IMG/VR virus record: IMGVR_UViG_3300031772_000003 | Coordinates: 99,717 to 163,716 of that record | DNA from: a virus | DNA length: 64,000 bases | Direction: 5' to 3' (one strand) | Part shown: positions 9,270-52,747 of the stretch, piece by piece | Numbering within the stretch: the stretch's first letter is position 1 | Layout of the letters: each line of letters starts with the position of its first letter | Translations under genes and position numbers: made by a program | Notes under the pieces: model-generated | Told to the model about the DNA's origin: nothing | Seen by the model: only the letters and a program-made list of their open reading frames with translations | Database searches by the model: none

Positions 9270-9970
9270 GCCTTGCCCCTCATGTATTCTAGCGACCTCT
9301 GCCGAATCAGCTTATCACACGCCTTTTGCTTCGCCCTACCCGACGTTGACATGCTACCAGGTCGTGGGTGCCGATACACGTAGGTCACCACGGGTACATG
9401 CTTAGTCGCACAGCCCGTCTCCCCAAGTAGGACGGCTATCTGATAGTCTACCGCTGAGGAAATCGAGGTATCGAGACCCCGGCTTTTGCGGTAAAAATCC
9501 AGGGACCAGAACTGCTGACACCCCGCTCCCCACCACCCACAGTTACAAATCGCGCTCCATAGGGTAGTACCAGGAGGGAGGGGTTTGCTCCACCCGTGCC
9601 TATCGGTTCCCATAAACTTCCAGGCCGTCCATACATAACCGACAGACGTATCTTGAAAGGGGGGTACACCCACGGACAAGCTATTAGACATCAGGGTATC
9701 ATCACTGCCCAAGAACGTCACCACGTCGCCTGTGGCAGCGTCCAGGGCAGCTTTGAGGGCGGCGGCACAACCGCCGTGGGGGAGCTTGAGCAGGGTAACA
9801 GGCTGGCCCGCTATGAGGCTTTCCACAACGTCGGCAGTATCATCCGTCGAGCCGTCATCGGCGATGATCAACTCCCACTGCTTATGGGTCTGGGCGAACA
9901 CAGAGCGGATCGCCTCAGCTATATAGGGGGCAGTGTTGTAACATGGAACCAACACGCTTACCACTTTCAT
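9266..9970 (-). CDS. GT2 family glycosyltransferase
   Basis: VSVLVPCYN, ELIIADDGSTD, FLGSDD; ATGA overlap with the stop of the giant ORF. Confidence 0.9.
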   Translation of the reverse strand: MKVVSVLVPCYNTAPYIAEAIRSVFAQTHKQWELIIADDGSTDDTADVVESLIAGQPVTLLKLPHGGCAAALKAALDAATGDVVTFLGSDDTLMSNSLSVGVPPFQDTSVGYVWTAWKFMGTDRHGWSKPLPPGTTLWSAICNCGWWGAGCQQFWSLDFYRKSRGLDTSISSAVDYQIAVLLGETGCATKHVPVVTYVYRHPRPGSMSTSGRAKQKACDKLIRQRSLEYMRGKA

Positions 9971-49800: not shown

Positions 49801-52747
49801 GGTTGGGGTAAACAGAGATAAACCTGGTCTCTCCTTCAATAGTCCCTCGCGTACCCAAGCTTTCATCCACTGTAACCCTGACGTCCCGTATTCGCTTCAT
49901 GTCCTCGTCACCAGCAGGCTGGTACACCTGGTAAGACGAGACCAGAGAGGACAATGTGGTCTCGGTCAAGATATTGCCTATCGTCTCTATGGCGAAAGAA
50001 CCAGACCCAAAGACAGCCGCACCATTCAACCAGTTGAAAATCTCATTGAACGCAATGGGCCAGTCAAGTGCCATCTCGGAGGCTTCCGCAAGCATGCGGT
50101 CGAGGCTACCCATAGATTCCCCTGCCCCGGCCACATGGTACTGCTGGGCAGGCGAGACATCCCCCCGCGCTCCTGGGGACAGTAGGCCCGTGAGATACGG
50201 CACTTGGCAGGCAACGAAAGACAGATTATGGGGATACCCTACGTCCCCCACAACCCGATTCACGTAGCCCTCCGGGGCCAGAACAGGATAAGTATCCTCG
50301 TCCTCCCGTCTCTGTTCCAACGCACCGGAGAGACGGCCCAACGTCTTCCTATCAACGCGGTACACATGGAAGTGGCCTCGATTCACTCGTATCCAGTCAT
50401 ACGCTCTCAGGATCGTGGAGATGTCGGCGAAGGAATCCTCCCCACCAACCTCCAACGTCTTAGGCTCATCCCCCCTACCATGCTTCTCCATGTAATCCAC
50501 GAATGCCCGCGTGTGGGCTAGACCACCCACGTAGACCCACTCTCCTATATCGGTGATCCACCAGCGTCCCCCTATGGTGAAGATTTCGGGCCGCTTCCGA
50601 ACCCTGTCCGCAGAGAACCAGTCATCCTCAAAGAGCACACTACCCAAACCACCAATGGACTCAGTAGCCAGCTTCCCCAAGGTCGCCCTGCCTCCCTGCA
50701 CGAAGTTGGCCGCCATGTCTCCACGCCGATGCGCGACGCTGAGCATCTGGTCCACAACCTGAAGCTGGTCCTCCGCGGTCTTGGCCCTCACGAGATCGAA
50801 GGAGAGGTCGAGCAGTGGTTCCAGTCCATAGTCACTCAGCCGCCACGTCCCATGAGGATCGGTGAAGAAGTTGGGCATCTGGTCCTCCCACTCCTCATCC
50901 GTGAACTCAATGCCCCGCTCCTCCAACTCAGGCCGCATGTCCAGCGAGGTATGGCCCATGAGCTCGGTACAGGCCCGAAGCCTCTGGGCGTTGTGGAGCA
51001 TCCGGTCCTTAATCTCCTGCATGCCCGCTTCATCCCGCACCACACCGGTCTTGGCGTAGTCCTGCCAAATCTTAATGAGGCGGGCAGCAGGAACAACGGC
51101 CCAGGAAACCCTACCCTTCCCACGCTTCCGCTTGAACTCAGCAACGACGGCCTCAAGCTCCTCGTCATAGATGTCCTCCAAGAAGTACGTAATCTCCTCG
51201 CTGCCCATCCCAGTAGTCCCACCACCAGGCACCTCATCCCAGTCCTCCTCGGCCTCCTGTATCACGCGGCCCAGACTGCCAATGAACTCCCCCCCAACCT
51301 GCATGATGTGGTCTATGTACTCCACGGCATCGTCGGGAGTGCCCTGGAAGATCAGTTCATGTGGGTCATTGATGTCCACCCGATGCCGCTTGCCGCCCAG
51401 GATAATGTCGCGCAGGGCATGTAGAGCTTCGCTGGCAGGGGCGTCCCCCACCTCGACGCTTAGTATGCCCTCAGCATCGAACAACCGGATCGCCCCACGC
51501 CTCAACGCCTCCTCCCGAAACTCCCATGTCCTCTGGTGCGTCCAGCTTAGTCCAAACCACCGCACCGTAGCCACGGTATGGCCCTCAAGCGTAGCTGAGA
51601 CAGTACCGTTTGGCCATACCCACGCGATCCCAATGGGGGCGGTGGACTCACCCAAGAGTGAGGTCATGGAAACCTCCTCCCATGGCACGTCAGGATTGCC
51701 TGGGCGGTCCAACATGTTCTTCCGCCAAACCCTGGACGGTCTAAGCACACCTCTATGAGCAACATTGGCGTAGCCGCTTCCCATGCTGGGATCGCCTACT
51801 ACCTGGTCGCCAGCCATTAGCTCCACCTTCTGCTCGTCCGTCATCTTCTGCATCAACTTCTTGACGGTGTAGATCGCGGCGTCAAAATCCCAGTCCAAGC
51901 TATCTGGGTCGAACTCCGCACCCGCCTGTGCCGCCATTACCTCAAGCCACTCAGGGGCTGTCCCATCCTGTAGGCGCTTCAGCACATCGTCTTCATCGGG
52001 CTCCACGTCCTTGAGGGCCTCACCAGGAATCTCGAAGACATACCCATAAGGGTCGCTCTTCAGGACACGCTCCTCACCCACGCCCGCTGCGATCTCAGCG
52101 TAACGCTCTGCCTCCCCCCTGAACTGAGTCAAGTAAACGAAGCCCTTGCGGGAGACATCCGCCCCTTTGTAATTGCCCGCCTTGTTGGGGTTGACGCCAT
52201 TTCGGATGATGTCCCTCGCTCTAACCCTCCCAGCAGTGCCGTGATACCAAGTACTAGCCTTCTGCCACTCAGCAGGGGGAGGCATCTCGGTGAGGAGACG
52301 ATCCAGGCTGCCAATGGATTCCCTCACCCCAATGCGGGCGCGGGCAGCGGAGGCCATGTCACCGGGCTGTCCCTGAAGATTGCGGTCAATCCACTCAACA
52401 GTCTGCTCGGGGGTAAACCGGACCCCGCACACAAAGGCCGAGCGCGCCCACTGCGGCCCATCCATGTACACCTCGTCATATTCTCTCATTTCTGCCACAA
52501 TGTCTCGCAGAGTCTCCAGAGCAGGCGAGGCGGGGGAATCTCCCACGCTAACTCCGAGCCACCGATCACCAGCGGTCAGACGAATGGCTCCCCGGTACAT
52601 TGCGTCGTAAATAACCGTCCGTGATTTCGGAGCACCTAGCCAGTCCGCCGCGACCTGACTATGACAACCCCCCTGACCCAATGAACCATCGGGCCAAATC
52701 CAAGTGCCATCGGGGTGGACATCAGCGAGTATGGGGGATGCAGCCAC
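40823..52747 (-). CDS. Giant modular polyvalent protein 2 (~3,974 aa): ART-like x~6, zincin x2, nucleotidyltransferase, JAB/MPN-like, unnamed repeated domains
   Basis: Start moved to GTG at 52747 after AGGAGG; YHGT/HAT/HCT/HVT ART-like starts, HEIVH, HEVEH, LTGS..DADV, HTHP..S..D; 12 linker copies. Confidence 0.85.

Follow-up and report, generated by a model that had tools for sequence, protein, structure and literature searches.

Whether the giant polyvalent proteins of phages act whole or in pieces, and where the borders of such pieces lie, is a question raised by two giant open reading frames (ORFs) in a 64,000-nucleotide stretch of viral DNA (the window), which comprises bases 99,717 to 163,716 of the 163,716-bp IMG/VR contig IMGVR_UViG_3300031772_000003 (completeness estimate, 92%). 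As longest ORFs, P1 (P0001; window 9967..19284, minus strand) has 3105 amino acids and P2 (P0002; window 40823..53032, minus strand) has 4069; both are open throughout, with likely starts at Met16 (19239) for P1 and at about 52747 for P2. In a separate assembly, the database gene call for P2 has 3974 amino acids, is 100% identical, and starts at window position 52747. The original prediction held that P1 and P2 are polyproteins whose enzyme modules are separated by one recurring 13-residue peptide (the linker), at which the phage head protease would cut them into effectors injected with the DNA. The analysis reported here finds the linker to be a junction element that selection maintains at the level of its amino acid sequence.

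All of the predicted linkers, 7 in P1 and 12 in P2, were located, giving 19 copies with the consensus E1-S2-I3-G4-(S/G)5-L6-D7-R8-x9-(L/V)10-(S/T)11-E12-A13. Gly4 is present in 19/19 copies, Ile or Val at position 3 in 18/19, and Leu6 in 17/19, and the aliphatic position 10 is near-invariant. When the copies were scored by a 13-column matrix, 16 reached 17 to 38 bits; the three weak ones (P1 residues 1142 and 1920 and P2 residue 1448) score 6 to 9 bits and are counted on position alone, with shuffled proteins giving 2.25 matches of at least 6 bits. The linkers, all on the minus strand and numbered here by residue, lie in P1 at 296 (window 18361..18399; 30.8 bits), 882 (16603..16641; ESIGSLAHLVESL(MEA); 24.1 bits), 1142 (15823..15861; HTVGELDLLVESL; 7.8 bits) before the HExxH module, 1399 (15052..15090; 28.7 bits) after that module, 1557 (14578..14616; RTIGALDAALNEE; 25.1 bits) before the 2H module, 1795 (13864..13902; RTVGSLDMALSEG; 26.0 bits), and 1920 (13489..13527; DDVGQLDRVVCEV; 9.3 bits). 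In P2, they lie at 238 (52283..52321; 35.7 bits) before the ART module, 582 (51251..51289) before module E, 791 (50624..50662) immediately past module E, 972 (50081..50119) before the first HExxH module, 1200 (49397..49435; 37.6 bits) between the two HExxH modules, 1448 (48653..48691; 6.1 bits) after the second of them, 2267 (46196..46234) between two 'YFSxGH' domains, 2412 (45761..45799), 2848 (44453..44491; 36.2 bits), 3353 (42938..42976), 3528 (42413..42451; 34.5 bits), and 4057 (40826..40864; 17.3 bits), the last being C-terminal and followed by the stop codon. A matrix made from P2 only retrieves copies in P1 at 21.4, 20.8, and 16.5 bits, with a shuffle maximum of 15.7, and a matrix made from P1 only retrieves five P2 copies at more than 22 bits. 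The best score in the remaining 47,600 residues of the phage proteome is 12.4 bits. Because this cross-retrieval exceeds all shuffles and the proteome maximum, the motif is real, common to P1 and P2, and private to these two proteins within the phage. An ESIG-like peptide, ESIGTLQKIVESL, near the N-terminus of a baseplate/fibre protein (L002:17072-18022) scored 10.3 bits, which is at chance level, and was rejected.

A repeated peptide could also reflect a feature of the DNA, such as a site of recombination or cassette shuffling, or what is left of a recent tandem duplication. The copies, however, use all synonymous codons, with every synonymous family represented, and the codon is identical in 36.0% of 709 identical-residue pairs between copies, against an expectation of 36.3% from codon usage. 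The sequences flanking the copies are unrelated, and a nucleotide-level repeat is absent. In the absence of such a repeat, neither a recent duplication nor gene conversion nor a recombination site can account for the copies; silent positions are random, and the linker peptide is what selection acts on. These observations contradict the DNA-level explanation, which we consider very improbable.

The modules that the linkers separate are numerous and varied. P1 comprises an N-terminal HExxE-like module, three ART-like modules, an HExxH zincin-like module, a 'YFSxGH' domain, a 2H phosphoesterase-like module, two 'GTWIWPDG' domains, a NUDIX module, and unknowns, and P2 comprises approximately 25 modules, including an ART-like module, four to six 'GTWIWPDG' domains, four 'YFSxGH' domains, two HExxH modules, the widespread all-alpha module E, an NTase-like module, and others. 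Their original description as unrelated enzyme domains applies only to some of them: profiles built from paralogues gather many into four families, namely, ART-like (four strong members plus weaker ones), 'GTWIWPDG' (six), 'YFSxGH...LWW' (five), and HExxH (three), whereas the rest, including NUDIX, 2H, and NTase-like modules, occur singly. The NUDIX match has an E value of 2.5e-13, and the Arr/PARP/Tpt1-type ART and NTase matches are weak. The 2H or 'RNA ligase' module (phrog_755, E value of 1.3e-6; P1 residues 1605-1699; window 14188-14472, minus strand) is a possible counter-defence effector. The 'GTWIWPDG' domain, which has about 130 residues, begins with G-T-W-I-W-P-D-G, and is present at least six times (P2 residues 100-231, 478-585, 1999-2125, and 3546-3685; P1 residues 2118-2252 and 2262-2404), has no match in Pfam or Atlas. 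Neither P1 nor P2 matches any PolyVal or LPD model of Pfam at an E value of ≤0.1; ART-PolyVal and LPD23 are found in proteins with which they have modules in common. A tblastn search of 50,697 phage records with module E and the ART module yielded no match, and a plasmid search with the modules yielded one unannotated match, from Rhizobium. The P1 2H module has a faint likeness to the anti-CBASS protein Acb1 (PDB 9q2g, E value of 0.33). The 'GTWIWPDG' domain also occurs six times, in the form 'WITPDG', in the unrelated giant protein P0095. By eye, P2 residues ~2860-3010 (window 43900-44450, minus strand) resemble a JAB/RadC-like metal site with one extra spacing residue and without Pfam support.

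The linkers had been predicted to stand at the boundaries of domains and not inside folds, and this is borne out by paralogue alignments, by the homologues of module E, and by AlphaFold2. When the pieces obtained by splitting P1 and P2 at the linkers were compared, paralogous modules aligned from linker residue 1 onward. For module E (P2 residues 611-790), which is bordered by linkers 582 and 791, a search of 1.84 billion representatives yielded 690 homologues, many of them stand-alone proteins of 180 to 220 residues. Their alignments start at query residues 14 to 120 and end by residues 200 to 215, so that linker 582 lies outside all 690 of them and linker 791 is reached by a few residues at most. 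An AlphaFold2 model of module E, built with 61 stand-alone homologues, has a predicted local distance difference test score (pLDDT) of 91 to 98 over P2 residues 610-789, and this confidence falls to 62 and then to 40 right at linker 791. Linker 582 is modelled as a helix of its own (pLDDT 69 to 80), with a low-confidence loop between this helix and the core of module E. A Foldseek search with the module E model found no match in the PDB. Taken together, the limits of the module E alignments and the pLDDT profile place the linkers, at the level of sequence and predicted structure, at module edges and outside the folded cores.

A Glu-specific head protease, on which the original prediction depended, was found in the genome outside the window. 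The protein P0006 (534 amino acids; L003:17335-18939, minus strand) is encoded directly upstream of the capsid gene, and its residues 60-214 match phrog_207, 'head maturation protease' (E value of 6e-19). In a BLASTP comparison with T4 gp21 (E value of 4e-8), His85 and Ser140 of the T4 enzyme, which we take to be its catalytic residues, align with His110 and Ser175 of P0006. The matches to Pfam S77 and S80 are below the cut-offs only (S77, 20.7 versus 27 bits), and P0006, which a whole-genome search with PF03420 missed, was detected only by scanning the ORF itself. The phage is thus predicted to encode a T4 gp21-type (MEROPS S77) head protease in which the catalytic His and Ser are kept. The C-terminal 300 residues of P0006 are of low complexity, coiled-coil, and scaffold-like, are rich in L-x-E↓A (the arrow following the Glu of a potential cut), and end in T-L-M-E-A-M-S-S-L-E-G-K, and the protein is probably a protease-scaffold fusion.

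The cleavage rule of this protease family is short. T4 gp21 cleaves after Glu in L/I-X-E (PMC9026906), and the related proteases of phiKZ and SPN3US cleave after S/A-X-E, with Ser favoured at P1' in SPN3US (PMC9026906, PMC10052503). The linker ends seen include L-T-E, L-S-E↓A, L-A-E↓A, I-Q-E↓A, and L-I-E↓A, and (L/V/I)-x-E ends 16 of the 19 linkers, so that, as a match in sequence, the end of the linker fits the gp21-type rule as the original prediction had proposed. The maturation site of T4 gp23 reads F-L-T-E↓A-E-I-G-G, and the capsid protein of the present phage has L-Y-E↓N and L-K-E↓A just ahead of its conserved Gp23 core. The shorter sites that had been noted at other junctions are also more frequent than expected, with (L/I/V/M)-x-E-(A/S) occurring within 30 residues upstream of 8 of the 11 domain starts that have no full linker, compared with a background of 13% taken from the same giant proteins (binomial P of ~1e-5).

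We therefore favour, as the most plausible account but still a tentative one, the reading that P1 and P2 are polyvalent effector proteins processed by the head protease; that they are cut into many separate host-modifying proteins is probable, given that the peptide between their modules ends in the rule by which the head protease of this phage would cut. The chains would be made late in infection and would enter the prohead, where the head protease would cut after the last Glu of the linker and at the shorter L-x-E sites of the other junctions, and the freed modules would leave with the DNA on ejection. The S-I-G-x-L-D-R front half of the linker may dock the chain or present the cleavage site, in the manner of the T4 capsid-targeting sequence. 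P2 is flanked by an intein-bearing portal gene of the T4 gp20 type (55413..57563, minus strand; Portal_T4, E value of 5.5e-32), which lies upstream of it, and by a tail-fibre-like gene (39151..40821, minus strand), which begins 1 nucleotide past its stop codon. All three are on the same strand, and this late and structural context fits late expression.

Several observations weigh against processing by the head protease. Three linker copies lack a clean L-x-E end, and neither the capsid protein nor the portal nor P0006 contains the extended motif. The neighbours of P1 are genes for glycosyl- and methyltransferases, with no head genes among them. The (L/I/V/M)-x-E-(A/S) sites are enriched in the rest of the proteome as well, with 143 observed versus 84 expected from shuffles, and although only 4 of them fall in 2,971 domain-interior residues of P1 and P2 (1.35 per 1,000 residues) versus 35 in the other 4,203 (8.3 per 1,000 residues), this scarcity inside domains does not reach significance when compared with shuffles (P of 0.24) and was rejected as evidence. 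The C-terminal linker of P2 follows an Arg-rich run, is without the final Glu, and has no downstream module to release. Finally, the strongest conservation falls on I3-G4-x-L6-D7-R8 and not on L-x-E, and a gp21-type site needs only three residues; to our knowledge, proteases of this type do not read I3, G4, L6, D7, or R8. Given the conservation of the front half and a C-terminal copy with neither Glu12 nor a module behind it, the front half must have a role of its own, whether in docking, in presenting the site, or as the target of another enzyme. At the end of P2 (window 40826-40900, minus strand), the Arg-rich run, the linker, the stop codon, and, 1 nucleotide on, the tail-fibre-like gene follow one another, and this last linker looks as if it were the former lead-in to one more module, which has since become a gene by itself.

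A different enzyme could be contained in the giant proteins themselves. The three zincin-like HExxH modules (P1 residues 1154-1389 and P2 residues 985-1203 and 1213-1447) may recognize the linker and process P1 and P2 in cis or in trans, either inside the head or once injected. HExxH and a downstream Glu are invariant in all three paralogues, and linkers bracket each of the modules, as is the case with proteases in viral polyproteins. A 13-residue site also suits a sequence-specific protease better than the three-residue gp21 rule does, and release of domains by embedded metallopeptidases has been predicted for polyvalent proteins (PMC5512222). However, the HExxH modules have no match to a Pfam peptidase family and no homologues by word-index search, and an AlphaFold2 model built from the three paralogues is unusable (pLDDT 43). 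What they resemble most closely are stand-alone viral proteins without an assigned function, so the modules may instead be effectors against host proteins. Moreover, two of the four flanking linker copies are the weakest of the set, and the agreement of linker ends and short sites with L-x-E would have to be a coincidence. We therefore regard an embedded peptidase as an unlikely, second-ranked explanation.

Alternatively, the linker may not be cut at all. It could be an amphipathic docking or structural helix, with the scaffold core, the portal, DNA, a chaperone, or the packing of the modules as its partner, and the giant proteins would then act at full length, as the virion RNA polymerase of N4 does. 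I3, G4, L6, D7, R8, and L10 together make up a hydrophobic face in which the Gly is fixed, as is typical of a binding element, and AlphaFold2 shows linkers as helices, although these predictions are of low to moderate confidence. The C-terminal copy in P2, with no module to release, is readily accommodated, and packaging or transfer without cutting is on record for some polyvalent proteins (PMC5512222). Such a helix leaves unexplained, however, both the kept Glu12 with the following Ala or Ser and the (L/I/V/M)-x-E-(A/S) sites at junctions without the full motif, and its candidate partner is only hypothetical. An uncut docking helix is likewise improbable and is placed third, after head-protease processing and the embedded peptidase.

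Searches for the linker outside this phage found no relative that carries it. When IMG/VR was scanned by protein pattern with P1 and P2, there were no matches. The back-translated motif gave 2 matches in IMG/VR, 110 in JGI metagenomes, and 103 in GTDB genomes, none of them a relative: the matches are single chance hits, an unrelated conserved Pelagibacter gene, or an SNF2-like gene. The exact motif was thus found in no other record across the three collections. Some ten further giant polyvalent proteins, from metagenomes and with modules in common with P1 and P2, each bear a recurring junction peptide of their own. P0004 (2691 amino acids), with three ART-PolyVal domains and NUDIX, has 11 copies of I-E-L-x-x-G-N-P-N-H-D-E-x-G-R-F-A; P0011 has 10 copies of E-S-x-D-P-D-D-V-N-P; P0150 (4727 amino acids), with LPD23, has 7 copies of (D/E)-(I/V)-R-F-Q-Q-G-x-V; P0066 has 6 copies of N-F-M-P-A-P; and P0127, P0059, P0088, P0105, and P0005 have 5 copies each of a motif of their own. 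Shuffled controls of these giants contain at most 3 to 4 copies, and the conserved islands are 9 to 17 residues wide. In eight of them, no more than 40 residues separate a junction copy from the edge of the shared module, and in P0150 and P0127 copies stand on both sides of it. The same module is therefore bounded by ESIG linkers in P1 and P2 and by unrelated private peptides elsewhere, and this is the strongest comparative argument that the recurring peptides serve as junction signals instead of belonging to domains. EVIKxxQQK and QFSARK are further private junction peptides among these giants.

It is possible, though speculative, that the linker is one case of a general 'address plus cut-here' code in the cargo proteins of phages, in which each lineage would have a private peptide matched to its own head protease and the set of injected effectors could be read from sequence. 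The linker of P1 and P2 would then be unusually long, at 13 residues, since a scaffold-docking helix is joined to an L-x-E site, like a T4 capsid-targeting sequence that is internal and repeated.

Among known systems, the polyvalent proteins described by Iyer, Burroughs, Anand, de Souza, and Aravind in 2017 are, like P1 and P2, giant phage chains of disparate conflict domains, including ART, NUDIX, NTase, and zincin-like domains (PMC5512222). Two hallmarks of that class are found here: P1 and P2 each hold several disparate conflict domains in one polypeptide, and they belong to a portal-terminase type of element (the alternative being a conjugative element), with gp23, gp20, sheath, and tape-measure genes on the contig. 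The nearest giant relatives of P1 and P2 carry the Pfam domains ART-PolyVal and LPD23, whereas the ART and HExxH modules of P1 and P2 are too divergent for the Pfam PolyVal models. By analogy with the polyproteins of RNA viruses, Iyer et al. predicted that the domains are packaged and released by a peptidase, and they favoured embedded metallopeptidases (PMC5512222). Polyprotein-like release has thus already been proposed for this class. Their paper names no junction peptide, the terms linker, boundary, interdomain, and spacer being absent from it, whereas the joints of P1 and P2 carry 19 copies of one. No description of junction peptides in polyvalent proteins was found in the full-text literature, a coverage that leaves subscription journals outside.

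The internal head proteins of T4 provide the closest precedent for cutting. IPI-III and Alt, which is an ADP-ribosyltransferase, are diverse anti-host proteins with a short common peptide that ends in L/I-x-E and is cut by the head protease (PMC9026906, PMC3012670), and the present phage likewise has homologues of gp20, gp21, and gp23. In T4, however, these proteins are encoded by separate small genes and have one N-terminal tag of 10 residues, whereas here the peptide is internal, occurs as many as 12 times along a chain of 3100 to 4000 residues, and stands at neither N-terminus. The T4 capsid-targeting tag and the linker have no sequence likeness. In phiKZ, 201phi2-1, and SPN3US, numerous internal proteins of the head are cut after Glu by a relative of gp21, often at multiple sites, in a short motif (S/A-x-E, or A-x-E with Ser favoured at P1') (PMC10052503, PMC9026906). 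These cuts remove or fragment N-terminal propeptides; unlike the cuts proposed here, they have not been described as a means of separating enzyme modules arranged in a string, and a long conserved linker has not been reported in those phages.

Further genes of the contig agree with a head and tail of this kind. A sheath gene (phrog_23, E value of 1e-83), a tape-measure gene, and a capsid gene that matches Pfam Gp23 (E value of 3.7e-43) and T4 gp23 (E value of 7e-16) mark the source, by predicted gene content, as an uncultured contractile-tailed phage with a T4-type head. Its cultured relatives are remote, with capsid protein identities of ≤32%. The intein of the portal gene is recognized as Intein_splicing at residues 364-505, and an adjoining ORF of 794 amino acids (window 57563-59947, minus strand) has an intein segment at residues 618-703 and no other family match.

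A large part of the unexplored counter-defence enzymes of phages resides in polyvalent proteins. In P1 and P2, dividing about 7,000 residues at the junction peptide gives roughly 40 candidate effectors, the faintly Acb1-like 2H module among them. The linker could also be reused for the loading and release of foreign proteins in phage capsids. If cleavage at the linkers is true, the injected effector repertoires of uncultured phages would become predictable from sequence.

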